From: Alphaproteobacteria bacterium
GTDB lineage: Bacteria > Pseudomonadota > Alphaproteobacteria > UBA8366 > GCA-2717185
DNA: 64,000 nt
Assembly: GCA_012103325.1 (NCBI GenBank)
Contig: WLWY01000006.1
Span: forward strand, 337,087-401,086
Direction: 5' to 3'
This document shows positions 10,233-56,050 of this stretch, one piece after another. The translations under genes were made by a program, and so were the position numbers. Below the pieces are notes generated by a model. That model ran no database searches. It was not told the origin of the DNA and saw nothing but the letters and a program-made list of their open reading frames with translations. The stretch's first letter is position 1. Every line of letters starts with the position of its first letter.

Positions 10233-10292
10233 TCGCAATGCTCCTTGAGGATCAGACCGAAACAAAAAGACCACGCGAACCAAACGTGCGCC

Positions 10293-10306: not shown

Positions 10307-10376
10307 CGCCACCGCGATCCGCGTCGATAGAGTCTCTGGCGATGCTTAGGAGCCGTTCGTCGCGAGGCAAAGCCAG

Positions 10377-11357
10377 ATGCAGAATATTCTCGTCACCGGT
10401 GCAAACGGACAAATCGGCTCGGAGCTGGTGCCGGCACTGCGCAACCGATATGGCATTGAACGCGTCATTGCTTCTGACATTCGAAGTCCGCCAAACGCCA
10501 ACAACGATGGCCCGTTCGAACATCTCGACTGCACCAGCCTGCGCCAAATCCAAGATGTTGTCCGGCAACACAACATCGGCACAATTTATCATCTCGCCGC
10601 CTTGCTTTCCGCCGTTGCAGAGCTGCAGCCACAATCGGCCTGGGATGTGAATATGGGCAGTGTTTATCGCGTCCTCGAAGTCGCGAGGCAGTGCAATTGC
10701 GCCCTATTCTTCCCGAGCTCCATCGGCGCCTTCGGCCCGAGCACGCCGAAGATGCAAACGCCGCAAGACACGATCCAGCGACCCACGACAATGTATGGGG
10801 TCACCAAAGTGGCTGGTGAGTTGTTGTGCGATTACTACGCCACGCGCTTTGGCGTCGATGCACGCGGGTTGCGTTTTCCCGGCCTTATATCCAGCGTTGC
10901 GCCGCCCGGCGGTGGAACGACCGATTACGCTGTCGATATTTTCTATCAAGCAATCCGTTATCGCCACTACACCTGCTATCTGCGTCCCGATACGCGGCTC
11001 GACATGATGTATATGCCCGATGCGATCCGTGCGATTCTTGAATTGATGGACGCCAGATCCGAAACGCTCATGCATCGGAATTCCTTCAACCTCACCGCTA
11101 TGAGCATCACGCCTGCCGATTTAGTAGGAGCGATCCGGGAGCATATTCCGGAATTTGCGATCACCTACGAAATCGATCCCGTACGACAAGCAATCGCGGA
11201 CTCCTGGCCACAATCGATCGACGACAGCGAAGCGCGCGCGCAATGGGGATGGGCGCCATGCTATGACCTTGTCGCTATGACAGCAGATATGCTCGATAAG
11301 CTGTCTGAAAAGATAATCCCGACGAACCCATCCCAAGGAACGCAAAATGCCCCATGA
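10377..11357 (+). CDS. L-threonine 3-dehydrogenase (SDR/epimerase type)
   Basis: TGANGQIG, HLAALLSA, PSSIGAFG, YGVTK and GGGTTDYA motifs. Overlaps a kbl-like gene. Confidence 0.85.
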   Translation: MQNILVTGANGQIGSELVPALRNRYGIERVIASDIRSPPNANNDGPFEHLDCTSLRQIQDVVRQHNIGTIYHLAALLSAVAELQPQSAWDVNMGSVYRVLEVARQCNCALFFPSSIGAFGPSTPKMQTPQDTIQRPTTMYGVTKVAGELLCDYYATRFGVDARGLRFPGLISSVAPPGGGTTDYAVDIFYQAIRYRHYTCYLRPDTRLDMMYMPDAIRAILELMDARSETLMHRNSFNLTAMSITPADLVGAIREHIPEFAITYEIDPVRQAIADSWPQSIDDSEARAQWGWAPCYDLVAMTADMLDKLSEKIIPTNPSQGTQNAP

Positions 11358-41656: not shown

Positions 41657-42151
41657 ATGTCTTCAGGAACATACGAAGCGGTGCGCGACCTGCTGCACCT
41701 GGAAGCCGATCTGCTCGACCGGCGGCAATGGGATGAATGGTTGGCGCTATACATACAGGACTGCGTCTATTGGGTGCCGTCCTGGGCGACCGAGGACGAG
41801 CTGACCGAGGACCCGGAGCTTGAGGTAAACATGATTTACCTCACTGGGAAACCCAGTCTCGAGGCGCGCATCTACCGCATCCAGTCCGGCCAAGCCTACG
41901 CGACCTCGCCGCTGGCGCGGACCAGTCACCTGGTCGATACCATCCGCCTGCTGGACGAAGACGATGAAAAAATCGAAGCCTCGGCGAAATGGCTGGCGTT
42001 CTCCCTGGACGCTCGGTGGGGCAAGCAGATCCGTGGCGGTTGGTATGAATATCAATTACACCGGTCCGACGATGGGCTGCGCATCGCGCAAAAGAAAATC
42101 GTGCTGCTCGAAAACGTCATCGACGGCGCCATCGACATTCACCAAATCTGA
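41657..42151 (+). CDS. Ring-hydroxylating dioxygenase beta subunit
   Basis: EA.LLD...WDEWL.LY..DC.YWVP.W, RT.H and KKI.L motifs. Confidence 0.88.
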   Translation: MSSGTYEAVRDLLHLEADLLDRRQWDEWLALYIQDCVYWVPSWATEDELTEDPELEVNMIYLTGKPSLEARIYRIQSGQAYATSPLARTSHLVDTIRLLDEDDEKIEASAKWLAFSLDARWGKQIRGGWYEYQLHRSDDGLRIAQKKIVLLENVIDGAIDIHQI

Positions 42152-42161
42152 CAGGCATCTC

Positions 42162-43196
42162 ATGCTCGCATTATCCAAAACGGCCGACGGTGTCGGCGGC
42201 ATCGCCCTAACCGAACACGATGTGCCAAACCCGGGACCCGGCGAATTCCGGCTGAAGGTCGCCGCCGCCGGCATCTGCGGCACCGATATGCAGATCTATC
42301 ACTGGGCGCCGCGCATGGCCCGCCGCATGGCGCTGCCGCGTATCTTGGGACACGAAGTGAGCGGTGTTGTCGAAGCGGTCGGCGCCAATGTCACCCGAGT
42401 CGCGCTGGGCGACCATGTCTCCCTGGAAAGCCATATCTATTGCGGAGAATGCGTGCCCTGCAAACGGGACCGCGCGCATCTTTGCGACGCAACCCGGTAT
42501 CCCGGGATCGATATCGACGGCGCCTTCGCCAGCCATATCGCGGTGCCGGAAAGCATCGCCTGGAAAAATCCGAAAGACCTGCCCCACGAAGATGCCGCGA
42601 TGCTGGAGCCGTTCGGCATCGCCGTGCATGCCTGTCTGGAAGGCTCCGGCGTCAAGGATCAAAGCGTGCTCGTCAATGGCTGCGGCCCCATCGGATTGAT
42701 GGCGGTGGCCGCCTCACGCGCCTTGGGCGCCGAGACGATTATCGCTGCCGACCCAAATCCATTGCGACGCGCGCAGGCCTTGAAGTCAGGCGCGGATCAC
42801 GCTTTCGACCCAACGACCATCGATCTCGTCGCCGCCATTGCTGATGTCACCGATAATGTCGGTGTCGACGCGGCCATCGAGTTTTCCGGCCAGCCAAACG
42901 GGTTCCGCGCCAGCATCGAAGCCGTCTGCAAAGGCGGCGATTTCCGCCTTGTCGGCGCGCCGGCGCATCCGCTGGAAATCGACCTGACCCGCTGGCTGCT
43001 GCGCTGCCCGCGCATCATCAACATCCATGGGCGGCGCATCTGGGAAAGTTGGGAGGCTTCGACGCGTCTCGTCCAGGACGGCGCCATCGACCTCGCCCCG
43101 ATCCGCAGTCATGTCCTGCCGCTGTCGGAAGGCATGCGGGGCTTCGATCTCATCCTCAAAGGCGAAGCCCTGAAACCGATCCTAATCCCCGACTAA
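42162..43196 (+). CDS. Zn-dependent medium-chain dehydrogenase (Tdh-like)
   Basis: GICGTD, GHE.SG, CGEC..C.......C and GCGPIG motifs. Start at ATG 42162. Confidence 0.85.
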   Translation: MLALSKTADGVGGIALTEHDVPNPGPGEFRLKVAAAGICGTDMQIYHWAPRMARRMALPRILGHEVSGVVEAVGANVTRVALGDHVSLESHIYCGECVPCKRDRAHLCDATRYPGIDIDGAFASHIAVPESIAWKNPKDLPHEDAAMLEPFGIAVHACLEGSGVKDQSVLVNGCGPIGLMAVAASRALGAETIIAADPNPLRRAQALKSGADHAFDPTTIDLVAAIADVTDNVGVDAAIEFSGQPNGFRASIEAVCKGGDFRLVGAPAHPLEIDLTRWLLRCPRIINIHGRRIWESWEASTRLVQDGAIDLAPIRSHVLPLSEGMRGFDLILKGEALKPILIPD

Positions 43197-44573
43197 GGTC
43201 GCGCTAATCAGATCAGCCGTCTTGTCCAGCGTGTCGATCCTCGAACACGTCTCTATCAACGCTTCAAACTGATCCGGTGAGATCGGCAAGCCCGGCTTGA
43301 GTTCGCGGATCCGCTGCGCCTCTTCCTCGAAGTTCCAGATAAACTCGCGACCGGTCGCCACTTTGGTGAAGCTGCGGCCGTCCTTCATATGGATCGTCAC
43401 GGTTGGTCCGAACAGCGTGTGTGCATGGACGGGCACTATGGTCACCCGCTTCATGAGGTCCAGGACCTCCGGCGGGTCGGCCTCACCAACACCGCGCGCT
43501 ACATTTTTGAGCAGCGGGAAACCGCGCTTCACCACGCCATAGGCCGCGTAATAATGCGGGCTGTCGATCTTCGGCATGGTGCCGCGCGACGGAAAAGCGG
43601 GGCTCGGATACTGGGTTTCCAGGAAGTTGACCTGTGTAACGACCCGGTCGACGTCCGCCGGCTGAATATCCTGCTCCGCGCACAGCGCCGCGGTCACATC
43701 GACATGGGCAATGTTATAACCAGGCGTCGAATAGATCCGGTACAGCGTTTCCAGGAACATCCAGTCGTTGCCGAGACCCGCCGTCAGCGTGTCGAGACTG
43801 GTCGCATTGTCGCCCGTGAAGCTGTAGCGCAGCTTGCCCAGATTGTTGCCGGTGTAGGAATGATAGAAACCGCCCTCGCCTTCCAGCACCGTTTCGCCGC
43901 CGGGCGTGCCATGCCGCGCCATCGCCACGGCCAACAAGGCATTCCGCACCGCGCCACCTTCGCGCAGTGATTTGCCGCCGCTGCGCGCACCCTCGACATT
44001 GCCGCTGGCCAGATTGACGCATTGTGTGATGGCGCCATGGATTTGCTCGGCGTCCAATCCGGTGATCTTGGCGATGGCGATGGCCGCACCGAAGATCCCG
44101 AAAACCGGACCGGGGTGAAACCCGCGCGACATCACCGTCGGAATGACGTCGGCCGCCATCCGCAGCATGACCTCGTAGCCCGCGACGATGCCGGTGATGT
44201 AATCCCGCCCCGAAGCGCCTTCGAGTTCGGCCGACACCAGCCCAGCGGGCAGGATCGCGCAGCCGGGATGGGTCAGCATACGGAACGTGTCCCACTTGCC
44301 GCCGGCAAACATCATTTCCGAGTTGACCAGCGCCGCCCCCGCCTTGGTAAGGCGCACACCGTCGACCAGAACCGTCGCCGCACCGCCGCCGCCGGCCTCT
44401 TCCTCCTGCATCATGCGCAGCGCCTGCTCGGCATCCGGCGTGTCGCGCCCGATCAGCGCCGACGCCAGCCCGTGCAAGGTCACACCCTTGGCCCGGTCCA
44501 CCACGTCCGGCGGCAGGTCTTCGTACTTTAGCCCAGCCACCCATTCGGCAAACTGCCGGCTGATTGACGCCAT
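43182..44573 (-). CDS. MmgE/PrpD family protein
   Basis: L.YEDLP.DVV, THPG, GYEV, GFH and EG..GF motifs. Confidence 0.85.
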   Translation of the reverse strand: MASISRQFAEWVAGLKYEDLPPDVVDRAKGVTLHGLASALIGRDTPDAEQALRMMQEEEAGGGGAATVLVDGVRLTKAGAALVNSEMMFAGGKWDTFRMLTHPGCAILPAGLVSAELEGASGRDYITGIVAGYEVMLRMAADVIPTVMSRGFHPGPVFGIFGAAIAIAKITGLDAEQIHGAITQCVNLASGNVEGARSGGKSLREGGAVRNALLAVAMARHGTPGGETVLEGEGGFYHSYTGNNLGKLRYSFTGDNATSLDTLTAGLGNDWMFLETLYRIYSTPGYNIAHVDVTAALCAEQDIQPADVDRVVTQVNFLETQYPSPAFPSRGTMPKIDSPHYYAAYGVVKRGFPLLKNVARGVGEADPPEVLDLMKRVTIVPVHAHTLFGPTVTIHMKDGRSFTKVATGREFIWNFEEEAQRIRELKPGLPISPDQFEALIETCSRIDTLDKTADLISATLVGD

Positions 44574-44698
44574 GCGCCGTCCTCCCCTGCTCGATTTGCG
44601 TCTTTGGGATGATGGTATCGCTTGTGGGACGCCATGAAAACGCTGGCTGGTAACTACCGGTTATCTACCGGGTGATTTGAGGGGGTGTAAAAAAACGC

Positions 44699-44741
44699 TT
44701 GATTATGAACGGCGTTCAATATACGTTTTGAACATTGTTCA
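44699..44741 (+). promoter_or_regulatory. Putative sigma70 promoter overlapped by two TetR-type operators
   Basis: -35 TTGATT (44699-44704), 17-bp spacer, -10 TACGTT (44722-44727). Palindromes TGAAC-GGC-GTTCA (44706-44718) and TGAAC-ATT-GTTCA (44729-44741). Confidence 0.7.
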
Positions 44742-44767
44742 TTATTGACCGAACAAAGGACGGAAAA

Positions 44768-45379
44768 ATGGCGCGCAGAGCCGATCATAGCCGCGAAGAG
44801 CTTTACGAGAATGCCCTTCAGGCGGCGCGGCAGATCGTCGAGGCGGACGGCTACCGGGCCCTGACGGCCCGCAATGTCGCAGACGCCATCGGTTATTCGC
44901 CGGGCACGCTGTATAACGTGTTCGAGAATCTCGACGATCTGATCGTCCATCTCAACGGGCGCACGCTGGACACGCTGCACGACAGGCTCGCCCCGCAGCA
45001 ACAAGCGGAAACGCCGGAAGCCGCGCTCGGCAAACTGCTCGACGGTTATCTGGGCTTCCTGGAAGCGCATCCCAACCTGTGGAACGTGCTGTTCGAGTAC
45101 AGCCTGCCACGCGGCCAGCAGCCGCCGGACTGGTATACGAGGAAGGTCAACAAGGTTCTCGGCCTTCTCGAAGCGGCCCTGTCTCCGCTATTCCCCGACG
45201 GCGACTCCGACGCGACCGGTCACGCGGCGCGGATTCTCTGGGCCGGCCTGCACGGTATCTGTTCCCTGTCCGACAGCGGCAAGCTGCAGGTTGTCACCAC
45301 GCAATCCGTCCGCGCGATGGCCGAAGGGCTCGTGGCGAACTACGTCACGGGCCTTCGGGTCAATCTCGGGAGGCAATAG
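44768..45379 (+). CDS. TetR/AcrR family regulator (WHG-type C-terminal domain)
   Basis: HTH LTARNVADAIGYSPGTLYNVF and LWAGLHGI. Start at ATG 44768. Confidence 0.92.
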   Translation: MARRADHSREELYENALQAARQIVEADGYRALTARNVADAIGYSPGTLYNVFENLDDLIVHLNGRTLDTLHDRLAPQQQAETPEAALGKLLDGYLGFLEAHPNLWNVLFEYSLPRGQQPPDWYTRKVNKVLGLLEAALSPLFPDGDSDATGHAARILWAGLHGICSLSDSGKLQVVTTQSVRAMAEGLVANYVTGLRVNLGRQ

Positions 45380-45382
45380 GTC

Positions 45383-46309
45383 ATGAGCGCTTCATCGCTT
45401 CTTCGCCTTCCCTGCGGACAAGAGGGTACGCACCCGTCACTTCCAATGCCGACCTTCGGAGGCTTGCAATTCTGGCGGGACACGCGTGTCAACGCGGGCT
45501 GGCGGATACAGCAAAACATCCGGACGGGGGCCGCGCGCCTGCTGGATCCGGCAAACCGGCAACAGTGCCGCGGCGACGAAAATTCCTGCCTCGCCCGTCT
45601 CGATGCGCTCAAGGCATCGCGTGGGATCGAACCGGCAAGCGATCACACCGTCCTGCTGCTACACGGCATCGCACGGTCGACAGGCACATTCAGAAAGCTG
45701 GAGGACGCGCTCCGCAATCAAGGCTATGACGCAACCGCCATCAGCTATCCCAGCACACGAACCGACATCGAAACCCACGCCGACGGTCTCGAAACGCTGC
45801 TGAGCCGGCTGGACCGCACGAAAACCGTCTCCTTCGTCACGCACAGCATGGGCGCGCTCGTCTTGCGGCACACATTGTCCCGGAAGGCGGACTGGATGGA
45901 ACGGATAACGGTCGGCAGAATCGTCATGATCGCACCGCCCAACCAAGGCGCCGCCGTCGCCGGTTTTCTGAAGAACATATCGCTCTACCGATGGCTCTAT
46001 GGACCGTCGGGGCAACAGCTCGTGCCCGGGACGGTCGCGGACATGCCCGGTCTCGAGGGGCGGGAAGTCGCCGTCATCGCCGGCGGCCGCGGAAACGGCA
46101 AAGGCTTCAATCCATTTTTACCCGGCGACGACGACGGCACCGTAACCGTCGCCGAAACTGAACTCGATGGCGTCCGGGACCGGATCGTCATCTCCTCCAC
46201 GCACAACGGAATTTCCAACCACCCCGACACCGTCAATGCGACCACCACTTTTTTGAGATCCGGCGGTCTTCGGGTGTCATCAACAGCAACAGGAGAAAAA
46301 AATGCATAA
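45383..46309 (+). CDS. Alpha/beta-fold hydrolase (lipase/esterase-like)
   Basis: Oxyanion LLHG, nucleophile THSMG, PPNQG, DDGTV (Asp) and STH (His). N-terminal PTFGGLQFW.D extension. Confidence 0.85.
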   Translation: MSASSLLRLPCGQEGTHPSLPMPTFGGLQFWRDTRVNAGWRIQQNIRTGAARLLDPANRQQCRGDENSCLARLDALKASRGIEPASDHTVLLLHGIARSTGTFRKLEDALRNQGYDATAISYPSTRTDIETHADGLETLLSRLDRTKTVSFVTHSMGALVLRHTLSRKADWMERITVGRIVMIAPPNQGAAVAGFLKNISLYRWLYGPSGQQLVPGTVADMPGLEGREVAVIAGGRGNGKGFNPFLPGDDDGTVTVAETELDGVRDRIVISSTHNGISNHPDTVNATTTFLRSGGLRVSSTATGEKNA

Positions 46310-46751
46310 TTTGTTCAAAGCCGGGATAATCGCTCTCGTCGCCGGTCAGGTGACAGCCGTATCGGCCACCGCATCCGCGAACAGTCAGACTCGCGCCTCA
46401 AAGGCATCAGCGGCAGCTCTGAGTCATATCGCCGATGGCAGCGTGTCGATCGTTCGCGGCAGCGGCACGATCCTCGAAGGCAGTTTCGAATTGGTCGTCG
46501 CATCCGCCACTTTCGTTGGCGACAGCACGGTCGTCGTGCTCAAGAATGTGTCGACCGGCGCGGAAATCGTTCTTGAAACGGCGGGCGAAGGCCTCCAGAA
46601 AATCTCTGAATTCACGGGGCACACGGTGCAGACCGTCGCCACATCCGCCGGCACGATCATAACCGAAGGTGCGAAAGTCGTCCTTTTCATTCCCAAAAAG
46701 ACGGTTGGCGCCCTCTTCGAAGCGTCGAACTATAAGGGGCAGGAACAATGA
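46302..46751 (+). CDS. Secreted hypothetical protein
   Basis: Signal-peptide-like N-terminus ending ..ATASA, beta-rich body, AGGAG RBS, overlaps both neighbours. Confidence 0.75.
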   Translation: MHNLFKAGIIALVAGQVTAVSATASANSQTRASKASAAALSHIADGSVSIVRGSGTILEGSFELVVASATFVGDSTVVVLKNVSTGAEIVLETAGEGLQKISEFTGHTVQTVATSAGTIITEGAKVVLFIPKKTVGALFEASNYKGQEQ

Positions 46752-47614
46752 ACCCGAAAGCGGGAATTCTGGCTCTTGGCCTCTGCATGACCATCGGAAT
46801 CAGCCATCATGCAGCGGCCGGCCAGAGCTGTGCCGCCCACGATATCACCGTCGGCGAGTTGCAATCGGCCCTTCATGTGGCAACCAAGGTTCGGACCGTT
46901 CTCGCTCAGGACAAATCCGAATTCGCGCTGATCGCGCGAGTCGGGAGCGATATCTCCGCCCATGGGCTCGAGTTCACGCATTTCGGGTTTGCCCAAAAAC
47001 GGGATAGGGACGGCGAGTGGGTTGTCGTGCACCAGCTAAATCCGTGCGCATCGGCAGAGTCCGGCCTTTTCCTGCAAGGTTTGGGCACCTTCATGCTGGA
47101 CGACTTGCTGACGCATGACGTGCTTGTCGTCACGCTGAGCGAAGCGATCAGCCGACAGCTCGAGCAGGTCTTCGCGGAAAACGGACCACATAAATTCTAC
47201 GACCCGCAGTACAATATGATTTCCTATCCGGGGACGCCCGTGAAATATCAGAACTCGAATGAATGGCTGCTTGAACTTCTGGCAAAAGCCCAGGCCGGTG
47301 CCGAAGGCGTGGCCATCGAGACCAGAACCGACGCGCATCGCTTCTATATCGAACGCGGCTTCAGGGGGTCCATTATTCGGATTTCGCCGTTGCGCCGCGC
47401 CGTCGCTTCGAGAGTATCGAAGAATATCCGGTTCGACGACCATCCTGAAACGAGCCACAGCAGCGGCCGATACGAAGTGGTGTCCGTCAAATCGATCGTC
47501 GACTACTTACAGGTAACGGGAGATGCTTCGAAAATCAGGAGAATTCAGGGAAGCTATCGCCGCGCCGACCGTCGGCCGAACGATCCTTCAAACGACGAAA
47601 CCGCGAGCGACTGA
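46748..47614 (+). CDS. DUF2145-like exported protein
   Basis: Signal peptide; ARVG.D.S.HGL.FTH.GF, VVHQLN.C....S.L..QGL..F, YN.ISYP...YQNSNEW..E and FDDHP. ATGA overlap with the upstream gene. Confidence 0.75.
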   Translation: MNPKAGILALGLCMTIGISHHAAAGQSCAAHDITVGELQSALHVATKVRTVLAQDKSEFALIARVGSDISAHGLEFTHFGFAQKRDRDGEWVVVHQLNPCASAESGLFLQGLGTFMLDDLLTHDVLVVTLSEAISRQLEQVFAENGPHKFYDPQYNMISYPGTPVKYQNSNEWLLELLAKAQAGAEGVAIETRTDAHRFYIERGFRGSIIRISPLRRAVASRVSKNIRFDDHPETSHSSGRYEVVSVKSIVDYLQVTGDASKIRRIQGSYRRADRRPNDPSNDETASD

Positions 47615-47639
47615 ACGCAGTATCGGCGAGGAGCAAGAG

Positions 47640-50600
47640 ATGTCGGAAAACCAAATCCATCTGCTGTCGACCAAGCGATTCCTGCCGCTGTTCGTCACGC
47701 AGGCGCTCGGCGCGCTGAACGACAATCTGTTCAAGAACGCGCTGGCCTTGCTAATCATCTACCGGATCGCCGAGGCGGCGGACATCAATGGACAGATCAT
47801 GGTCACCATCGCCGGCGGCATTTTCATCCTGCCGTTCTTCCTGTTCTCCGCCGTGGCGGGCCAGATCGCCGACAAGTTCGAAAAATCCCGTTTGATCCGG
47901 ATTATCAAGGCGGCCGAAGTCGTCATCATGGCGCTGGCGGCGGTCGGGTTCGTCTTCGGCAATGTGTATTTCCTGCTGACCGTCCTGTTCCTGATGGGCA
48001 TGCAATCGTCGTTCTTCGGCCCGATCAAATACGGCATCCTTCCCGACCATCTGGCGAAAGACGAGCTGATCGGCGGCAATGCCCTCATCGAGGCGGGGAC
48101 GTTTCTCGCCATTCTCATCGGCACGATTGCGGGCGGGCTGCTGATCCTGCAGCAGGGCGGCATCGCCGTTGTTTCCAGCGGCGTAATCCTTCTTGCGATC
48201 CTCGGCCTGGCCAGCAGTTTCGCCATTCCGAAAGCGCCGGCACCTGCCCCAACGCTCAAGATCAATCCCAACTTCCTGGCGGAGACCGGGGCGCTCGTCA
48301 AAATGGCCGCCGATCAACGGGACATTTTCCTCTCCATCCTCGGCATTTCCTGGTTCTGGCTCGTTGGCGCGACCTTCCTGGCCCAGTTTCCGGCCTTCGC
48401 CAAGGACATCCTGTCTGCCGACGAGACCGTCGTTACGCTGTTCCTGACCTTGTTCTCTGTCGGTATCGCCATCGGGTCGCTGCTCTGCAACAAGCTGCTC
48501 AAGGGAAACATCTCCGCGAAATATGTTCCCCTCGCTGCCATCGGCATGGCGGCTTTTATCACCGATCTTTATTTCGCCAGCCAGGCTCACACGCCATCGC
48601 CATCGCTGATTTCAGCCTTCGCTTTCTTATCGGAACCGGCGAATTGGCGGATCGTGTTCGATCTGCTCGCCATATCGGTCTGCGGCGGGCTTTTCATCGT
48701 ACCGCTCTACGCCATCCTGCAGACCCGCAGCGAGGAGGCCTTTCGCTCCCGGATGGTCGCCGCGAACAACATCATGAATGCCCTGTTCATGGTCACCGGC
48801 GCGCTGGCGGCGACAGCGATGCTGGCGGCAAGCTTCTCGGTTCCGGAAGTCTTCCTGGCCCTGGCGGTCCTGAACGGCTTCGTCGCCCTCTATATCTGCC
48901 GCCTGCTGCCCGACGCCCTGATCAAAGCCTTCCTGATTTCCACCCTGAAGCTCTTCTACAGGGTCGAGGTCCGCGGCCTGGAGCATTACGGCAAGGCCGG
49001 CGACCGGGCGGTCATCGTCGTCAACCATGTCTCTTTCCTCGACGCCGTGCTGCTTGCAGCATACCTGCCGGTAAAGCCGCTCTTCGCAATTGACACGCAC
49101 CATGCCGAGGCATGGTGGATCAAACCCTTCCTGCGGCTCGTCGACGCCTTTCCCATGGACCCGACCAACCCGATGGCAACCAAGTCGCTGATCAAGGCCG
49201 TGCGGGAGGACCGCCATTGCGTTATTTTTCCCGAAGGCCGCATCACGGTCACCGGGGCGCTGATGAAAATCTACGAAGGCCCCGGCATGATCGCCGACAA
49301 GGCCGACGCGATGCTGGTGCCGATCCGCATCGACGGGGCGCAATACAGCCCCTTCTCGCGCCTCAAGGGAAAGGTCCGCATTCGCTGGTTTCCGAAAATC
49401 ACCGTGACGATCATGCCGCCCCGACGGTTCGACATCGCCGAGGAGATCGTCGGCCGCGAGCGGCGGCAGATGGCGGGCGTAAAGCTGTACGATGTGATGA
49501 GCGAAATGGTCTTCGAAACCTGCGACCGCCGGCAAACCCTATTCGAGGCGTTGCTGGACGCGCAGTCCCTGAACGGCAGAAAACATGTCATTGCCGAGGA
49601 TGTCGAACGCCAGCCGATCTCATACGGCCGCCTGGTCACGGGTGCGCTCGTGCTGGGCCGGACGCTCGCCCGGGTGACAAAGCCCGGCCAATATGTCGGC
49701 TTCCTGTTGCCGAATTCGGTCGGCGCGATTGTCACCTTCTTTGCGCTGCAGGCGTTCGGGCGAGTCCCGGCCATGCTGAATTTCTCCACCGGCACCGCGA
49801 ACATGCAGGCGGCGCTCACCGCCGGCAACATCGAAACGGTCGTAACGTCGCGCCGCTTCGTGGAACTCGGCAAGCTGGAGGACGCCGTCGCCGCCCTCGG
49901 GACCCAGGCGGAGATCGTGTATCTCGAAGATGTGCGGCAGGAGATTTCCCTTATCGACAAACTGTTGGGCCTGTTCTCACGCCATTTCGCGCGGTCCATC
50001 CACGAAAGCCACGCCGCCCCGCCCGACGCGCCGGCGGTTATCCTGTTCACGTCGGGATCGGAAGGCACGCCGAAGGGAGTCGTGCTGAGCCACGAGAACC
50101 TGTTGGCCAACCGCTATCAGCTGGCCGCACGGATCGACTTCAATCCCACGGACACCGTGTTCAACGCCTTGCCCATCTTTCATTCCTTCGGCCTCACCGG
50201 CGGCACGTTGCTGCCCATGCTGTCGGGCGTGAAGACGTTTCTCTACCCCTCACCGTTGCATTACCGGATCGTGCCGGCCCTGGTCTACGACACCAATGCG
50301 ACGATCATGTTCGGCACCGATACGTTCCTGACCGGCTATGCAAGGGTGGCGCACCCCTACGACTTCTACAGCCTGCGTTACGTTTTCGCCGGTGCGGAGA
50401 AGGTCAAGGACGAGACGCGCCGCGTCTGGTCCGACAAATTCGGCCTGCGCATTCTGGAAGGCTATGGCGCCACCGAAACGGCACCGGTGATCGCGGCCAA
50501 CACCCCGATGCATTTCAAGGCGAGGACCGTAGGGCGTGCGATGCCGGGCATCGAATGCGAACTGGAGCCGGTGCCGGGGATCGAGGAAGGCGGCAAACTG

Positions 50601-51056
50601 ATCGTGTCCGGCCCGAACGTCATGCTGGGCTATCTACGCGCCGAGAATCCCGGCGTTCTGGAAGCGACGGAGAACAACCGCTACGACACCGGAGACATCG
50701 TCACGATCGACGGCGAAGGCTTCATCACCATCCAGGGCCGCGCCAAACGCTTCGCCAAAATCGCCGGCGAAATGGTGTCGCTGACCGCCGTCGAAGCCCT
50801 GGCCGCCGCCGTCTGGCCGAACCACATGCACGCCGCCATGAGCATTCCGGATGCCCGCAAGGGCGAACAGATCGTCCTGCTGACCGAAAACCCGGACGCT
50901 GTCCGTGCCGAATTGTCGAACCACGCCCAGTCGAACGGCATGTCCGAACTCGCCGTGCCCCGCACCGTGCAAACGGTTGCCGCCATTCCCGTGCTGGGCA
51001 CAGGCAAGGTGGACTATGTCGGCGTCGGGGCGCTGCTCTCCACGACAGCGGTTTGA
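47640..51056 (+). CDS. Acyl-[ACP]--phospholipid O-acyltransferase (LplT-like MFS + PlsC + acyl-ACP synthetase fusion; Aas-like)
   Basis: MFS (GALNDNLFKNAL, FGPIKYGILP), PlsC motifs NHVSFLD and FPEGR, adenylation motifs FTSGSEGTPKG, EGYGATE and YDTGD. GAGGAG RBS before ATG 47640. Confidence 0.92.
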   Translation: MSENQIHLLSTKRFLPLFVTQALGALNDNLFKNALALLIIYRIAEAADINGQIMVTIAGGIFILPFFLFSAVAGQIADKFEKSRLIRIIKAAEVVIMALAAVGFVFGNVYFLLTVLFLMGMQSSFFGPIKYGILPDHLAKDELIGGNALIEAGTFLAILIGTIAGGLLILQQGGIAVVSSGVILLAILGLASSFAIPKAPAPAPTLKINPNFLAETGALVKMAADQRDIFLSILGISWFWLVGATFLAQFPAFAKDILSADETVVTLFLTLFSVGIAIGSLLCNKLLKGNISAKYVPLAAIGMAAFITDLYFASQAHTPSPSLISAFAFLSEPANWRIVFDLLAISVCGGLFIVPLYAILQTRSEEAFRSRMVAANNIMNALFMVTGALAATAMLAASFSVPEVFLALAVLNGFVALYICRLLPDALIKAFLISTLKLFYRVEVRGLEHYGKAGDRAVIVVNHVSFLDAVLLAAYLPVKPLFAIDTHHAEAWWIKPFLRLVDAFPMDPTNPMATKSLIKAVREDRHCVIFPEGRITVTGALMKIYEGPGMIADKADAMLVPIRIDGAQYSPFSRLKGKVRIRWFPKITVTIMPPRRFDIAEEIVGRERRQMAGVKLYDVMSEMVFETCDRRQTLFEALLDAQSLNGRKHVIAEDVERQPISYGRLVTGALVLGRTLARVTKPGQYVGFLLPNSVGAIVTFFALQAFGRVPAMLNFSTGTANMQAALTAGNIETVVTSRRFVELGKLEDAVAALGTQAEIVYLEDVRQEISLIDKLLGLFSRHFARSIHESHAAPPDAPAVILFTSGSEGTPKGVVLSHENLLANRYQLAARIDFNPTDTVFNALPIFHSFGLTGGTLLPMLSGVKTFLYPSPLHYRIVPALVYDTNATIMFGTDTFLTGYARVAHPYDFYSLRYVFAGAEKVKDETRRVWSDKFGLRILEGYGATETAPVIAANTPMHFKARTVGRAMPGIECELEPVPGIEEGGKLIVSGPNVMLGYLRAENPGVLEATENNRYDTGDIVTIDGEGFITIQGRAKRFAKIAGEMVSLTAVEALAAAVWPNHMHAAMSIPDARKGEQIVLLTENPDAVRAELSNHAQSNGMSELAVPRTVQTVAAIPVLGTGKVDYVGVGALLSTTAV

Positions 51057-51065
51057 GCCCGAATC

Positions 51066-51854
51066 ATGGACCGCCTGACATTCACGCACCGCATCCTGAT
51101 CCTGGGCATAATGTTCAGCGCGACACTGGCCGCGCTTGGCTTCGTCCCCCCTATTCCGCAAGACCCGAACTACCACAACCTTGCCGATCCGCGGCCTTAT
51201 CTAGGTATTCCGAATTTCGGCGACGTTACCTCGAATGCCGGATTCCTGATTGTCGGCGTCCTCGGTCTCATGACGGTTCTGGGGCGGAAGGGCAGAGAAA
51301 TATTCACCAACCGAACGGACGCGTTGCCCTACATCGTGTTCTTCGCCGGTGTCGGTTTGGTCAGCATCGGATCAAGCTACTATCACCTCGTGCCCGACAA
51401 TGACCGGCTGTTCTGGGACCGCCTGCCGATGACAATCGCCTTCACGGCCTTGTTCTCGGCAATCGTCGCCGACCGTATCGACCGCACCACCGGCATAAAA
51501 TGGCTGTTGCCGATACTCATCGCCCTCGGGATCGCCAGCCTGCTCTATTGGGACTGGACCGAGAGCCAGGGCCGCGGCGATTTGCGGTTCTATGGACTCG
51601 TGCAGTTCTATCCGATGATTGCGCTTCCGGTGATCTGCTGGCTGTTCCCGAAGGCGCGCTATACCGGCGGCGGTTATCTGATCTGGGTAATCTTCTGGTA
51701 CGCGGCGGCCAAGGTTCTGGAATATTTCGACGCTGAAATCCTCGCCTTGCTCGGCGGCGCGGTTAGCGGCCACAGCTTGAAACACCTCGCGGCCGCCATG
51801 GCGACGCTTGCTGTGCTGAGGATGGTCGCGGGTTCACGGCGCCCTGCCGTGTAG
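51066..51854 (+). CDS. CREST-superfamily membrane hydrolase (alkaline ceramidase-like)
   Basis: Multi-pass membrane protein with PQD..YH..AD, SN, SSYYH, WDRLPM and GHSLKH metal motifs. Confidence 0.8.
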   Translation: MDRLTFTHRILILGIMFSATLAALGFVPPIPQDPNYHNLADPRPYLGIPNFGDVTSNAGFLIVGVLGLMTVLGRKGREIFTNRTDALPYIVFFAGVGLVSIGSSYYHLVPDNDRLFWDRLPMTIAFTALFSAIVADRIDRTTGIKWLLPILIALGIASLLYWDWTESQGRGDLRFYGLVQFYPMIALPVICWLFPKARYTGGGYLIWVIFWYAAAKVLEYFDAEILALLGGAVSGHSLKHLAAAMATLAVLRMVAGSRRPAV

Positions 51855-51906
51855 GATGCGAATTCGAAAACGCCGGACGAGCGCTCAAATTGAGCCGCAA
51901 AAATAT

Positions 51907-52446
51907 TTAGTCTAAATGAACTGTCCTACCCTGTTCGAAGAGGGCGCAGGTAAGAAGCTCTTGCCACAACAGGCGTTCCGGTTCTTGATTTTTGGTTATT
52001 TGGATTCCGTCTTTGGTTCCATGATCTATTCCCTTAGCATAGTTCTGTGAACCATTTTTCCAAAAATTATTCGAACATGATTCAAAATTTGAGAAAAAAT
52101 CTTCCGCAAGGACTCCATAGGACTGCACTTGTTCGATAAACAAAAACAAATGCTCTGCTACGAAATTTATTATGCGGTCTTCGTTATCTTTCTTCTTTTC
52201 AGATTTTATCTTCCTAAGTTCTTTTGTGGACAGAATTTGGACAAAACCACGTATATATCCGTGTAGATATCCATTATTTAGAATAGGTTTAAAAAATATA
52301 CTATGTTCTTGGTGTTATTCAATTATTTCCATTTGTATTCTTATAGCTAATACTATTGGAGATCCTACATTCCATAAATTTTCGTCGTCGATCCATTCAT
52401 CCTTCGAAAAATTGAACATCTGTGCAATCTTCGAAAAATTGAACAT
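51907..52446 (-). pseudogene. AT-rich hypothetical gene interrupted by one in-frame TAA
   Basis: AAGGA RBS and ATG 52446, then MFNFSKIAQMFNFSKDEW...MEIIE*, TAA at 52315-52317, then an open frame that continues into the ORF 51907..52149. Confidence 0.6.
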
Positions 52447-52451
52447 CTGTG
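52402..52451. repeat. Direct repeat, 23 bp x2, 27-bp period
   Basis: CTTCGAAAAATTGAACATCTGTG at 52402-52424 and 52429-52451. Confidence 0.9.
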
Positions 52452-52483
52452 TGATCCTTGATCCTCAATCATGGGCCAATTAC

Positions 52484-52517
52484 ACGCTCCTGGTTATAGA
52501 ATTATAACGAGGAGCGT
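52484..52517. other. Near-perfect hairpin with 15-bp arms
   Basis: ACGCTCCTGGTTATA-GAAT-TATAACGAGGAGCGT, 1 mismatch. Confidence 0.7.
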
Positions 52518-52583
52518 CTCACTGTGTCTAATTTGAATTCGACATTCAAAAGCACCATTTGATGTCGCGTAGAACATGAAATA

Positions 52584-52685
52584 TGAATAGCCCCGAGTTT
52601 TCTAGACACCCTCGGTTCATATATCCTTCTGCCGTTCGAACTCGACGGGCGACAGCATCCCGTTCCTCACATGCTTGCGTTTCGC
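52584..52685 (-). mobile_element. IS3-family remnant: transposase C-terminus plus right inverted repeat
   Basis: Minus strand encodes KRKHVRNGMLSPVEFERQ..*TEGV*, followed by GGTGTCTAGAAAACTCGGGGCTATTCA, an IS3-type end terminating in CA. Confidence 0.8.
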
Positions 52686-52696
52686 ACATGAAGCCT

Positions 52697-52860
52697 AGGG
52701 TCAGGTCTTGCAATACGACAAATCCACCAACGTTAGCTCGTCTAATTAGCTCTGTCCCACGCCGCGAGATTTTAGATTGCTCCAGCGAGTATTATTCGCA
52801 AAGGTCAAGCTGCTCGGCAGCAGTTCATGAGACAATCGTAGGATTGCAAGACCTGAGCCT
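52697..52860. repeat. Inverted repeat pair (REP doublet or MITE-like)
   Basis: AGGGTCAGGTCTTGCAAT (52697-52714) and ATTGCAAGACCTGAGCCT (52843-52860), 1 mismatch. Confidence 0.65.
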
Positions 52861-53008
52861 GAAGTTCTGCGATACTATATTCGTTGGCAGAGACCTGCGT
52901 CGTGTTGCGAATGATTGCGGTAGCACCGTACTGGAAATGATTCGCCTGACGCCTTTCGCCACCGTGGTCTAAAATACCTGGCATCGCGAACCGAAGTTTG
53001 GATTATGG

Positions 53009-53623
53009 ATGCCGTTTCGCCGCGCTGCCTTATGGATATCATTTTCTGCTGCGATCCTCATGTCGCCACGCGTGCAAGCAGATGACATCGTCTTGCATGC
53101 AGCGAAAGATGTCGAATGTCCCGTAGCGGTTACGGCCGACAAAAAATGGCACGTCCTGAAGGTTCGAGTCTCGCCCGACAATACCGATGGAGGCCGGTGC
53201 AGAATCGATAAAGAGAAGACCCAGAGGGCCCTAACGTTTGCATTTCGAGCGCTAGCCGAAAGTGGTGACCCAACACGCTACGAATCGGTATTTTTGGGAC
53301 GCATCGAATTCTACAAATGGCTCAGCCGTTATCTCGTGGTCCGTGCCCGCGGGCATCAAGATTAGTCGACGGAAACGGGCCGACCGGCGCGGGACAAAAA
53401 CATTAACGCTTTGGTGAACGGAATTTTGGGCGAGCCCACCGTGTTGGATGCTCTACGCCCTGCCCTCCAGCGTGCCGGGTATCGGCCGGCCGGGTTCTCC
53501 TGCGAGAAAGTTCTCGTGTCCGGCCCCGGCACCCGGCATGTCGAGCCCGCGTGGGCGTCGAAGGCGAAACACGTTCCCTACGATGCGATGTGCTGGCTGA
53601 AACTGGAAAAGGGGAGCGGGTGA
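53009..53623 (+). pseudogene. Exported hypothetical gene split by one in-frame TAG
   Basis: ORFs 53009..53365 and 53411..53623 are in the same frame, joined as ...GHQD*STETGRPARDKNINALVNGIL.... Signal-peptide-like N-terminus. Confidence 0.65.
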
Positions 53624-53648
53624 CGCCACCCACCCATTTCATTGATTT

Positions 53649-53795
53649 CGTCATCCTCGACTTGATCGAGGATCCAGTCCACTGCAGAAAGGCCACCGTC
53701 CCCGCGAAGGTTTGCGTTGGGCGCGCGAAGCCATTTCTTTAACCGGCTGTCGGAATTCACCGTTTCCTGGATCCCGCATCAAGTGCGGGATGACG
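53649..53795. repeat. Inverted pair of alphaproteobacterial REP-like palindromes
   Basis: CGTCATCCTCGACTTGATCGAGGATCCAG (53649-53677) and CTGGATCCCGCATCAAGTGCGGGATGACG (53767-53795). Confidence 0.75.
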
Positions 53796-53971
53796 GCCTT
53801 TGTTGCTGGAAGCGGAGGCGCGCTATTGGCAATTGCCCCGCCGCGAGACGGCCAAAACGAATAAGCGTCCCTTCCAATCGGTCAATTCGGCATTACCTGA
53901 AAGACTTCGGACGAACCGACAAGAAAATCTTTACGGCGTATGCGGTATCGCTGAGGCGAAAGGACGAATTT

Positions 53972-56050
53972 ATGACGGGCAATTCAACGAAGACAATCGA
54001 CGTCAACCCGGCGATAGCGGCCTGGAACGGCCCGCTGGGCTTGCCCGAATTCGCGAAAATTGCGGACCGGGATTTAGAGGCCGCGTTCGACGCCGCCCTG
54101 CCCGCGCATTTGGCGGACATCGAAGCGATTGCCAACAATTCCGAAGCGCCGACCTTCGAAAACACCATCGTGGCATTGGAATTGGCGGGTGAGCTGTTGG
54201 ACCGGGCGTCCGGCATTTTCTGGAACCTGTCCGGGGCAAATACGAACGACACGCTGCAGGCGCTGGAGCGTAAGCTTTCCCCCGAATTCTCCCGGCACTA
54301 CTCCGCCATCATGATGAACCGCGCGTTGTTCGGCCGTATCGACGCGCTGTATCGGGACCGGGATGGCCTCGGTCTCGATGCGGAGGCCAGCCGCGTGCTG
54401 GAACTGACCTGGAAGTCCTTCGTGCGGTCGGGCGCGCAGCTCGACGATGCGGATCAGACACGGCTCGCGGCAATCAACGAACGTCTTGCGACACTCGGCA
54501 CAGCGTTTTCGCAGAATGTGCTGGCCGACGAATCCGGTTATGCGTTGGTGCTTGAAACGAAGGAAGATCTGGCGGGACTGCCGGACTCGCTGGTTGCCAG
54601 TATGGGCGCGGCGGCGGCCGAGCGCGGCCACGCGGGCAAGCATGCCGTGACCTTGTCGCGGTCGATCATCGAGCCGTTCCTGACCTTCTCGACGCGGCGC
54701 GATTTGCGCGAGACGGCCTTCCAGGCCTGGATCGCCCGGGGCGAGCATGCGGGTGAGCACGACAATCGCCCGATTGTCACGGAGATGGTGAAGCTGCGCG
54801 CCGAGAAAGCGGCGCTGCTCGGATACGACAGCTTCGCGCATTTCAAGCTGGACAATACCATGGCGAAGACGCCGGAGACCGTCCGTTCGCTACTCGAAAC
54901 CGTATGGGAAAAGGCGTGCGGCCGCGCCGCCGAAGAAACGGCAGAGCTTGCCGGCCTGATCTCGGCGGAGGGCCACAATCACGACGTCGCGCCGTGGGAT
55001 TGGCGCCATTACAGCGAAAAGGCGCGGGCAGCACGGTACGATTTCAACGAAGCGGAGATAAAGCCGTATCTGCAGCTGGAGAAGATGATCGACGCGGCCT
55101 TCCATACGGCAGAGAATCTGTTCGGCATCACCTTCCGCAAACATGACGATGTGAAAGCCTATCACCCCGATGTGCGGATCTTCGAAGTACTCGGCGCGGA
55201 CGGCAAGCGGATCGCGGTCTTCCTCGGCGATTACTTCGCCCGGCCATCGAAACGGTCCGGCGCGTGGATGAGTTCGTTTCAGGATCAGCACAAGCTGACG
55301 GCGGATGGCGAGGGCCAGACGCCGATCGTCGTGAACGTGTCCAACTTCGCCAAGGCGCCGGCGGGCGAACCGGTCCTGATCACCATGGATGACGCAAGAA
55401 CCCTGTTCCACGAATTCGGGCACGCCCTGCACGGCATGCTGTCGGACGTCACCTATCCGTCGATTTCCGGCACGTCGGTCAGCCGCGATTTCGTGGAACT
55501 GCCGTCGCAGCTGTACGAGCACTGGCTGACCGTGCCGGAGGTGCTGCAGCGTTTCGCGGTGCATCACGAAACCGGCGAGGCGATCCCCGAGGCGCTGCTC
55601 GACAAGATGCGGGCGGCCGAGAAGTTCAACAAGGGCTTCGCCAATGTGGAGTTCACGTCGTCGGCGCTCGTCGACATGGCGTTCCACACGCTCGACCCGA
55701 AACAAGCTGAAAATGTCGACCCGCTGGCCTTTCAGGCCGATGTTCTGGCCGGACTCGACATGCCCGCGGCGATCGTCATGCGCCACGCGACGCTGCATTT
55801 CAGCCACGTGTTCGCCGGCGACGGCTATTCGGCCGGGTACTATTCCTACATGTGGTCCGGCGTGCTCGACGCCGACGCGTTCCTCGCCTTCAAGGAAGCC
55901 GGCAATGCGTTCGACCCCGCAATCGCCGGCAAGCTCCACCGCTACATTTATTCGTCCGGCGGCTCCCTGGACCCGGAAGACGCCTACATCGCCTTCCGCG
56001 GCAAACTGCCCTCGCCGGACGCCCTGCTCGAGAAAGAGGGGCTGTCATAG
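53972..56050 (+). CDS. dcp: M3 metallopeptidase, peptidyl-dipeptidase Dcp-like
   Basis: KRSGAWM, FHEFGHALH, DFVELPSQ and YSAGYYSY.W motifs. Start placed at ATG 53972. Confidence 0.9.
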   Translation: MTGNSTKTIDVNPAIAAWNGPLGLPEFAKIADRDLEAAFDAALPAHLADIEAIANNSEAPTFENTIVALELAGELLDRASGIFWNLSGANTNDTLQALERKLSPEFSRHYSAIMMNRALFGRIDALYRDRDGLGLDAEASRVLELTWKSFVRSGAQLDDADQTRLAAINERLATLGTAFSQNVLADESGYALVLETKEDLAGLPDSLVASMGAAAAERGHAGKHAVTLSRSIIEPFLTFSTRRDLRETAFQAWIARGEHAGEHDNRPIVTEMVKLRAEKAALLGYDSFAHFKLDNTMAKTPETVRSLLETVWEKACGRAAEETAELAGLISAEGHNHDVAPWDWRHYSEKARAARYDFNEAEIKPYLQLEKMIDAAFHTAENLFGITFRKHDDVKAYHPDVRIFEVLGADGKRIAVFLGDYFARPSKRSGAWMSSFQDQHKLTADGEGQTPIVVNVSNFAKAPAGEPVLITMDDARTLFHEFGHALHGMLSDVTYPSISGTSVSRDFVELPSQLYEHWLTVPEVLQRFAVHHETGEAIPEALLDKMRAAEKFNKGFANVEFTSSALVDMAFHTLDPKQAENVDPLAFQADVLAGLDMPAAIVMRHATLHFSHVFAGDGYSAGYYSYMWSGVLDADAFLAFKEAGNAFDPAIAGKLHRYIYSSGGSLDPEDAYIAFRGKLPSPDALLEKEGLS

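Follow-up and report, generated by a model that had tools for sequence, protein, structure and literature searches.

The described repair route for lysophospholipids in Gram-negative bacteria is that of LplT and Aas, in which LplT flips lysophospholipids and Aas re-acylates them (PMC11416262; here and below, statements on published systems follow those parts of the cited papers that deal with them). Flipping, acyl loading and re-acylation are established for the separately encoded Escherichia coli proteins of this 2-acyl-glycerophosphoethanolamine cycle, and the lysophospholipid sources named for it are Lnt, PagP, PldA and foreign phospholipases; ORFs (open reading frames) in which LplT and Aas are fused exist in some bacteria and are uncharacterized (PMC11416262). 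In Pseudomonas aeruginosa, aas (PA3267) encodes LplT fused to an acylation domain, and aas and Arc3 (Arc3A/Arc3B, DUF2339/PF13163) both limit lysophospholipids as a defense against phospholipase toxins, with Arc3A and Arc3B preventing lysophospholipid accumulation under phospholipase-toxin attack (PMC8926400). The aas gene neighbors arc3 in many bacteria, and the mechanism of Arc3 is open according to the same paper, as are the making, sensing and clearing of lysolipids in the periplasm. Here, we describe a putative six-gene operon at positions 44768 to 51854 (plus strand) of a 64,000-nucleotide stretch of alphaproteobacterial DNA (the window; positions 337,087 to 401,086 of contig WLWY01000006.1, assembly GCA_012103325.1). 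The locus is probably a TetR-repressed regulon for envelope (lyso)phospholipid remodeling and repair, built around the only LplT-Aas of the cell. Together with its relatives it ties four families of unknown function to the LplT/Aas route: a family of small proteins, DUF2145, a bacterial group of the CREST superfamily and a DUF676-type esterase.

The six genes are all on the plus strand, and the gaps between them are, in order, +3, −8, −4, +25 and +9 nucleotides (nt). The ORF listing thereby reproduces exactly the arrangement given in an earlier note written from the DNA letters alone. The gene products that the note had named (a TetR regulator, a lipase-type hydrolase, a secreted protein, a DUF2145 protein, LplT-Aas and a ceramidase-like protein) are supported by family scans, motifs and folds, and the two operators that it had placed before the operon correspond to two perfect palindromes that occur as a pair only here in the genome. 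None of the five gaps between the genes contains a terminator-like site; across the region such sites occur at the level of chance (9 found and 9.7 expected).

The fifth gene (47640 to 51056, plus strand) encodes the LplT-Aas fusion of 1,138 amino acids (aa). Its product scores 1713.2 bits on the NCBIfam equivalog NF005291, "acyl-[ACP]--phospholipid O-acyltransferase" (cut-off, 1349), over residues 4 to 1134 of 1138, and the start at 47640 is supported by this alignment, which begins at residue 4. Three domains are present, namely, a major facilitator superfamily (MFS) domain (MFS_1, 47.1 bits), a PlsC-type acyltransferase (Acyltransferase, 68.3 bits) and an acyl-ACP (acyl carrier protein) synthetase, or AAS, domain (AMP-binding, 199.1 bits), and the translation carries the motifs NHVSFLD (HX4D), FPEGR and TSGSEGTPKG. 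Judged by its sequence, the MFS part is LplT-like and is no equivalog of the stand-alone LplT. These three domains are common to the window fusion and E. coli LplT/Aas. In E. coli, however, they are encoded by a bicistronic aas-lplT operon without such partners as are found here (PMC11416262), whereas in the window they form one polypeptide under a TetR gene, with four further genes in the same operon. No second LplT/Aas was found in the source genome (label G000), where 18 further matches cover the AMP-binding part only. Compared with the aas/Arc3 system of P. aeruginosa, the window fusion keeps the AAS domain, and the source genome, at 92.5% completeness, has no match to DUF2339 (PF10101).

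Directly 5' of the fusion lie the genes of a small protein (46302 to 46751, plus strand; 149 aa) and of a DUF2145 protein (46748 to 47614, plus strand; 288 aa). The latter matches PF09916 with 179.5 bits (cut-off, 25) over profile positions 2 to 200 of 200. Both are probably exported, as judged by eye from their N termini, which carry A-x-A sites. The association of the two was examined in 80 DUF2145 loci taken from one-genome-per-species contigs, the best 80 of 284 confirmed matches, in which ORFs were called anew and compared with iterated profiles built from the six proteins of the operon. In all 80 loci, a gene of the small-protein family immediately precedes DUF2145 on the same strand. 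The loci span the Alphaproteobacteria, many Betaproteobacteria, Gammaproteobacteria (Rheinheimera and Legionella erythra) and metagenome-assembled genomes (MAGs) labeled Deltaproteobacteria. Pairing with the small protein is thus shown to be obligate for DUF2145. In 6 of the 80 loci the DUF2145 ORF call was overextended; the small ORF lies inside it in another frame, still 5' of the region of homology. Five Janthinobacterium loci contain two small-protein copies in tandem. In one alphaproteobacterial MAG (locus L088), DUF2145 is split into two ORFs (9974 to 10363 and 10400 to 10792), which reflects either a frameshift or an assembly error.

The small-protein family is sizable, with 863 representatives at an E value of ≤0.001 and 624 at ≤1e-10 among 1.84 billion 50%-identity clusters, and nearly all of the matches listed (150 rows) are 130 to 175 aa long. 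It corresponds to no Pfam model: when 53 members were compared with Pfam, no family was common to more than three of them at an E value of ≤0.1, and the scattered matches had E values of 0.0027 or higher. In the Atlas, the small protein retrieved "hypothetical" clusters only and one weak structural neighbor, DUF7765, with a TM (template modeling) score of 0.51.

An LplT-type gene was found within the fetched flanks of DUF2145 in 30 of the 80 loci, 25 times as MFS+PlsC and 5 times as MFS+PlsC+AMP; in three further loci the MFS gene is cut by the contig end, and one has a PlsC-AMP Aas only. The MFS+PlsC neighbors, of about 630 to 730 aa and lacking the synthetase domain, share in Betaproteobacteria the architecture of P. 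aeruginosa aas (PA3267). When only the 40 loci flanked on each side by 9 kb or more are counted, 21 have an LplT gene, and by our own arithmetic a single-copy gene would be expected by chance in about 0.4% of such spans. In 12 loci the LplT gene follows DUF2145 directly on the same strand at less than 300 bp. At least six different arrangements occur; the LplT gene may lie directly downstream or 1.7 to 2.1 kb downstream, it may be divergent, either 1.3 kb upstream or separated by two genes, or it may be convergent. Because the arrangement varies between lineages, the link is not that of one inherited block.

De novo clustering of all ORFs from these loci revealed only two further recurrent neighbors, DUF2339 (arc3A) and DUF3999 (arc3B), which lie within 10 kb of DUF2145 in 17 and 13 of the 80 loci, respectively, in four layouts. 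The clusters of Janthinobacterium show aas on the opposite strand followed by arc3A, arc3B, two small-protein genes and DUF2145; in Pseudoduganella, aas on the opposite strand is followed by small protein, DUF2145, arc3A and arc3B; in Rhodocyclaceae the order is small protein, DUF2145, aas and arc3A; and in a Casimicrobiaceae locus (L043), arc3B, arc3A and aas lie on the opposite strand downstream of DUF2145. The term "DUF2145" does not occur in the main text of PMC8926400, where no mention of a small partner protein was found either. The arc3 neighborhood inclines the role of DUF2145 toward clearing lysolipids rather than making them.

As a separate observation, arc3A/arc3B, small protein, DUF2145 and a divergent LplT-PlsC gene stand together in one cluster in eight Janthinobacterium loci (L045, L067, L070, L075, L080, L082, L084 and L085), and the same five-part cluster is found in four Pseudoduganella loci (L022, L025, L028 and L083).

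The predicted structures are in line with a physical complex of the pair. A model of the small protein with DUF2145 gave ipSAE interface scores of 0.68, 0.66 and 0.67, against 0.00 for the best of three controls; among solved complexes, 58 of 80 attain this mark, as do 2 of 110 mismatched pairs, a calibration that is only rough because our own alignments were used. The partner has a predicted local distance difference test (pLDDT) value of 71, and the contact agreement is at least 66%. In the model, the conserved C-terminal residues 137 to 146 of the small protein pair with residues 106 to 114 of DUF2145, which comprise the strand 106 to 111 and the start of the next helix. The model supports binding of the small protein to DUF2145.

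The AlphaFold 2 model of DUF2145 (pLDDT, 89.9; predicted TM score, 0.85) resembles a group of lipid-binding papain-like proteins. An exhaustive structural aligner placed YiiX of E. coli (2if6) first, with a Z score of 11.5 (167 residues aligned; root mean square deviation [RMSD], 3.6), followed by 3kw0 of Bacillus cereus (Z, 9.6; 150 residues) and the effector TseH (Z, 7.5), with CLN5 (Z, 5.3) and PLAAT4 (Z, 5.1) at the level of the background. Since 2if6 and 3kw0 stand above the unrelated rows (Z of about 5), the predicted fold of DUF2145 is assigned to the YaeF/YiiX-like permuted NlpC/P60 type with a papain-like core. Foldseek retrieved no PDB entry for the model at an E value of ≤0.001, the best being 3kw0 at 0.064, and the DUF2145 profile matched only EXLX1 among PDB sequences, with an E value of 1.1. 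Although the fold matches, DUF2145 differs from the YiiX-like enzymes in having Ser for the catalytic Cys, in being some 80 to 100 residues longer and in having no detectable sequence-level similarity to them.

Among 53 DUF2145 sequences, which are only 30 to 58% identical to the window protein, the invariant columns include H78, S170, the whole YQNSN motif, R64, Y155, Y167, H232, C28 and C100. In the model, H78 lies in a strand and S170 at the start of the helix 170 to 185. A Cys/His dyad is not found: the His (H78) is invariant, and the helix begins with an invariant Ser. With H78 ahead of S170 and a helix that starts at 170, the protein fits the permuted members, in which the invariant His is likewise N-terminal to the helix-start residue; the corresponding alignment to YiiX by hhalign is not significant and locally puts the Cys of YiiX four residues after S170, so that the residue mapping is unsupported at the sequence level. 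From the model and the invariant columns we infer a His78/Ser170 dyad in permuted order, with S170 as the proposed nucleophile, and a disulfide between C28 and C100.

The same substitution is the starting point of a different explanation, in which the pair has no catalytic function, its Cys-to-Ser site being disabled, and instead carries lysophospholipids or fatty acids to LplT or blocks phospholipase toxins. DUF2145 has been described as a papain-like family with Ser in place of the nucleophilic Cys, and its catalysis has been called speculative (PMC10318531), in agreement with the invariant columns found here. Moreover, the permuted NlpC/P60 enzymes have a hydrophobic pocket, and E. coli YiiX, annotated as a "putative lipid-binding hydrolase," was crystallized with a fatty acid (PMC3142127); the pair also occurs in arc3-aas neighborhoods tied to phospholipase-toxin defense (PMC8926400). 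However, the invariance of H78, S170, YQNSN, R64, Y155, Y167 and H232 across 53 diverged sequences is a pattern typical of an active site, and papain-like enzymes with Ser can keep some activity, as cited in PMC10318531. A purely binding role of the pair is therefore considered improbable.

A second alternative keeps the catalysis and assigns it another place in the pathway. DUF2145 and the small protein would then form an envelope acyltransferase that moves a phospholipid acyl chain to a lipoprotein N terminus, to lipid A or to another acceptor, as do Lnt, PagP and LnsAB, and LplT-PlsC would only recycle the lysophospholipid by-product. The closest precedent is LnsA of Staphylococcus aureus, a secreted permuted NlpC/P60 protein that needs a partner, the membrane protein LnsB, and uses the sn-1 chain of phosphatidylglycerol (PMC7387801; PMC13559823). 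Lnt and PagP are themselves named as sources of lysophosphatidylethanolamine for LplT/Aas (PMC11416262), and both the obligate partner of DUF2145 and its tight linkage to LplT-PlsC would suit such a reaction. DUF2145 resembles LnsA in its probable secretion and in having an obligate partner; the partner, in contrast, is here a small, soluble-looking, exported protein, whereas LnsB is a polytopic membrane protein of the CPBP type. Furthermore, no acceptor-related gene is conserved nearby, where only the small protein, LplT-PlsC and arc3A/arc3B recur, and the co-location with arc3, which prevents lysolipid build-up (PMC8926400), fits clearing at least equally well. We regard this production of lysolipids by the pair as unlikely, though less so than a role in binding alone.

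With regard to clearing, it may tentatively be proposed that the small protein and DUF2145 are a so far unrecognized periplasmic two-subunit Ser/His enzyme of the permuted NlpC/P60 superfamily that turns over lysophospholipids as a lysophospholipase or transacylase. It would be the missing extracytoplasmic arm of lysophospholipid homeostasis in bacteria and would serve, along with LplT-PlsC, Arc3, the CREST protein and a lipid-sensing TetR, in a dedicated defense against phospholipase attack and membrane damage. Transacylation of lysolipids is the type of reaction carried out by the papain-like lysosomal enzyme CLN5.

Two other candidate functions for the pair were set aside. A toxin-immunity pair was considered unlikely because both proteins have signal peptides (by eye) and the recurrent neighbors are housekeeping lipid genes, and no secretion-system or mobile-element genes were noticed among these neighbors. 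A peptidoglycan hydrolase was considered less likely for DUF2145 because its closest structural matches belong to the permuted group with lipid pockets and not to canonical P60.

The last gene of the operon (51066 to 51854, plus strand; 262 aa) encodes a putative zinc hydrolase of the CREST superfamily, a membrane protein recognized by its motifs and modeled fold. Three His, one Asp and one Ser, arranged as SxxxH, D and HxxxH, are conserved in all CREST members (PMC9436119; PMC3146951). The complete set is present in the window protein, and in 26 CREST-like sequences S103-x3-H107, D118 and H236-x3-H240 are invariant. The family scan also touches the SID-1 model, and profile matches were obtained to SID-1 (E = 0.0022) and SIDT2 (E = 0.0031). 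The structural model has eight helices (pLDDT, 94.7), and VIA-align ranked ACER3 first with a Z score of 17.1 (212 residues aligned; RMSD, 3.5), followed by SIDT2 (14.6), SID-1 (14.2) and AdipoR2 (13.2), against a G-protein-coupled receptor background of about 13 (≤13.3). Foldseek gave no match at an E value of ≤0.001, the best being again ACER3 at 4.5e-3. A CREST-type transmembrane core of seven helices like that of ACER3, SID-1 and AdipoR is thus predicted. With the known members of the superfamily (ACER3, SID-1/SIDT, AdipoR and Per1/PGAP3) the protein shares the S-x3-H, Asp and H-x3-H residues; it differs from them in being bacterial, in carrying one more helix at the N terminus, together with a conserved YHxFAD loop, and in falling under the Ceramidase cut-off. 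CREST members include ceramidases and glycosylphosphatidylinositol (GPI) phospholipase A2 enzymes, and in the case of Per1/PGAP3 a lyso-lipid is made and then re-acylated (PMC13562381), the same logic as that of a hydrolase beside LplT-PlsC. Pei et al. described bacterial "hypothetical groups" near the ceramidases, for which gene-association analysis gave no functional lead (PMC3146951); the window protein is probably a member of these groups.

In a search of the phylum, 23 of 401 genomes, the source genome included, had a match to the CREST protein. LplT-PlsC adjoins the CREST gene directly in 6 of 23 places outside the source genome, in one other family and three of its four genera. Among 20 wider CREST regions this adjacency occurs in 5, and in 3 of these 5 the small protein and DUF2145 lie within about 2 kb of LplT-PlsC, with a DUF3047 gene in between. 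In the Rhodocyclaceae locus L057, the CREST gene is directly 5' of a PlsC-AMP Aas. The intervening DUF3047 gene (208.8 bits) is on the opposite strand (L126, 10910 to 11644, minus; also L127 and L128), and the CREST gene precedes LplT-PlsC in these loci. The CREST homologue of L126 scores 21.6 bits on PF05875.

The second gene (45383 to 46309, plus strand) encodes a 308-aa alpha/beta hydrolase of the DUF676/DUF7379 esterase-lipase type. It scores 34.8 bits on DUF7379 (cut-off, 33), 28.3 on Abhydrolase_6 (cut-off, 26.3) and 20.2 on DUF676, just under the cut-off of 20.3, and the translation contains the nucleophile elbow T-H-S-M-G-A of the GxSxG type. The nearest Atlas clusters are DUF676/DUF7379 "esterase/lipase" clusters with scores of 0.97 to 0.98. 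No signal peptide is evident. The alignments of homologues begin at query residues 18 to 24 and conservation sets in near residues 19 to 22, so that translation may in fact begin at the ATG at 45446. A search of the class found a match in 39 of 301 genomes, the source genome included, and the hydrolase gene abuts LplT/Aas in 6 of the 29 other loci that were fetched. These six come from six families, all are among the 21 full-length homologues, and two also have a TetR gene in front. Each of the three accessory modules, i.e., small protein and DUF2145, CREST protein, and hydrolase, hence has a separate link of its own to LplT/Aas in other lineages.

The first gene of the operon (44768 to 45379, plus strand), with an AGGA motif 8 nt 5' of its ATG, encodes a 203-aa TetR-family repressor with a helix-turn-helix and a TetR_C_33 ligand domain, which score 34.4 bits on PF00440 (cut-off, 24) and 57 bits on PF13305 (cut-off, 26.8). 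It reaches no NCBIfam equivalog, the best being the Bacillus-type FadR with 28 bits against a cut-off of 200. Upstream of the gene, the region 44699 to 44741 (plus strand) contains the putative promoter and two operators, O1 (TGAACGGCGTTCA, 44706 to 44718) and O2 (TGAACATTGTTCA, 44729 to 44741), each a perfect 13-bp TGAAC-N3-GTTCA palindrome. From an alignment with four orthologous promoters, the promoter is likely TTGATT (44699 to 44704), a spacer of 17 nt and TACGTT (44722 to 44727), where the relatives carry TATATT or TATAAA. Position 44699 would then belong to the −35 hexamer and not to a start codon; O1 falls within the spacer of this promoter, and O2 falls just 3' of its −10 element. The number of single operators in the window is within chance (2 matches against a shuffle mean of 1.40, with at least 2 in 39 of 100 shuffles when one mismatch is allowed). 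The pair, in turn, is unique in the 6.33-Mb genome, in which a pattern search with the reversed pattern as a control gave 0.

The same operator pair recurs in other genomes. It lies 5' of TetR in three orthologous loci (L008, L009 and L010) in the same layout, 5' of the small protein and DUF2145 without an adjoining TetR gene in genome G012 and locus L088, and 5' of the CREST gene in G096 and G212, two genomes of another family. Whole-genome counts gave a single pair for each of G000, G001 and G012 and two pairs for each of G096 and G212, and the reversed control is 0 in all five. In G096 (complete, 8.0 Mb), the second site is flanked by a divergent TetR homologue (30 to 32% identical) and an LplT-Aas fusion of 1,134 aa that scores 1733 bits on NF005291. 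G212 has the same TetR/LplT-Aas layout, with a hydrolase homologue (35% identical) directly after the fusion. In both genomes the CREST gene with its operator pair is unlinked to TetR/LplT-Aas; likewise, G012 has TetR and LplT-Aas on one contig and the small protein, DUF2145 and operator pair on another. Both 13-bp palindromes are retained in the promoters of five TetR homologues, as well as at target genes. Since the same operator stands at unlinked TetR, LplT-Aas, CREST and small protein/DUF2145 genes, this evidence for a regulon is independent of gene order. The conserved operator appears to define a TetR regulon, as far as DNA motifs can indicate it.

Some details of these loci are reported for completeness. 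The G096 locus L153 has an 88-aa ORF without a family (8403 to 8668) and a spacer of about 360 bp (8669 to 9029) between the operator pair and the start of LplT-Aas, which could be a leader peptide or an untranslated leader. TetR homologues also adjoin the small protein and DUF2145 in L018 (10846 to 11466; 50% identical) and L064 (415 to 1110; 42% identical), with no LplT gene within 10 kb; in L018 the TetR gene is 56 bp 3' of the pair, and in L064 it is divergent from the pair with one exact operator in between.

Several observations weigh against a lipid-repair regulon and its proposed enzymes, and they concern the linkages, the structures and the source. No LplT gene was found in the fetched flanks of 46 of the 80 DUF2145 loci, including 19 with at least 9 kb on both sides, and LplT/Aas is not the neighbor at 17 of 23 CREST places and at 23 of 29 hydrolase loci, so that the links are frequent and not obligatory. 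The 80 loci are also not independent, Janthinobacterium alone contributing 8. The complex score is a confidence of the model and no measurement. A comparison of the DUF2145 alignment with E. coli YiiX by hhalign returned a probability of 0.1 and an E value of 0.51, i.e., no sequence-level link, and the replacement of the papain-type Cys by Ser makes the activity of DUF2145 uncertain; a positively charged pocket is also noted in PMC10318531. The MFS part does not reach the stand-alone LplT equivalog NF008397 (108.4 bits against a cut-off of 297), and the CREST-like protein, with 31.4 bits, stays under the cut-off of 32.5 for Pfam Ceramidase PF05875. A scan for consensus promoters found no sigma-70-like site at 44699 to 44741. 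Finally, the source genome is a MAG (24 contigs) of an uncultured, sponge-associated alphaproteobacterium; the sequencing runs that hold the stretch are sponge metagenomes (DNA), with no RNA run among those listed.

The counts of unlinked loci are also what would speak for a loose juxtaposition, in which LplT-Aas alone acts on lysophospholipids and the other genes are unrelated envelope or stress genes, given that the accessory genes are found away from LplT/Aas more often than beside it. Against this stand the recurrence of three separate modules beside LplT/Aas in different families and orientations, the overlaps of 8 and 4 nt between window genes, and the operator pair, which joins TetR/LplT-Aas to an unlinked CREST gene with only two sites per genome in two genomes. 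Such a chance assembly is very improbable, and a common regulon for envelope lipid remodeling and repair is the probable explanation of the locus.

In such a regulon, TetR dimers bound to both palindromes, in the promoter spacer and at the transcription start, would shut the operon, and a lipid signal, possibly a fatty acid, an acyl-thioester or a lysolipid, would release them. DUF2145 and the small protein would be exported and form the periplasmic complex predicted by the model. DUF2145 would be a variant, with Ser and His at its putative active site, of the lipid acyl-hydrolases and acyl-transferases of the permuted NlpC/P60 type, and may act at the periplasmic face by removing or transferring an acyl chain of phospholipids or lysophospholipids. 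The CREST protein, according to its modeled fold, could act as a zinc-type intramembrane hydrolase that cleaves a membrane lipid at an acyl bond, either ester or amide, and the cytoplasmic DUF676-type esterase would hydrolyze an ester lipid. LplT would flip the resulting lysolipids inward, AAS would load free fatty acid onto ACP, and PlsC would re-acylate. The net effect would be a bacterial cycle of the Lands type, inducible and serving both to remove detergent-like lysolipids and to reset acyl chains.

Taken as a whole, the interpretation in the earlier note is partly supported. Its central idea, a functionally coherent lipid operon around LplT-Aas that gives uncharacterized families a context, gains from the linkage found elsewhere, and the association of DUF2145 and CREST homologues with aas that it had suggested looking for exists in several lineages and arrangements. 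Its description of the system as undescribed does not hold for LplT/Aas, the fused forms and the aas-arc3 linkage (PMC11416262; PMC8926400), and it does hold, within the literature searched, for the DUF2145 partner, the new linkages and the TetR regulon. Absent from it were the obligate pairing of the small protein, the predicted permuted NlpC/P60 fold of DUF2145 and the position of the pair within the aas-arc3 neighborhood of Betaproteobacteria. In the main texts of the open-access literature searched, "DUF2145" occurs in one paper only, and no report was found of its obligate small partner, of a linkage of LplT/Aas to DUF2145, the bacterial CREST group or a DUF676-type esterase, or of a TetR operator regulon at LplT/Aas. 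The locus offers these uncharacterized families a testable role in membrane lipid repair. If the proposed enzyme roles are true, they would represent new steps in bacterial membrane homeostasis and phospholipase-toxin defense and provide the first physiological context for bacterial CREST proteins.

The surroundings of the operon contain few features of note. An Rfam scan of 44000 to 54000 gave 0 matches. The upstream genes (41657 to 44573) are non-lipid genes, encoding a ring-hydroxylating dioxygenase beta subunit, a zinc-dependent alcohol dehydrogenase and, divergently, an MmgE/PrpD-family protein; synteny of the PrpD gene extends to L009 and L010, with 93 to 94% identity. Directly 3' of the operon, a stretch of about 650 bp (51900 to 52550) has a GC content of 41 to 46% against about 60% around it. 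It contains only short, broken ORFs on both strands (e.g., minus-strand pieces of 80 and 43 aa), two copies of ttcgaaaaattgaacatctgtg as a direct repeat and, on the minus strand, several promoter-like sites (TAGACA-18-TATAAT, 11/12), and it looks like a decayed gene or a remnant of foreign DNA. Between this stretch and an M3 peptidase gene lies an ORF of 118 aa (53009 to 53365) that has a signal-peptide-like N terminus and no Pfam family.

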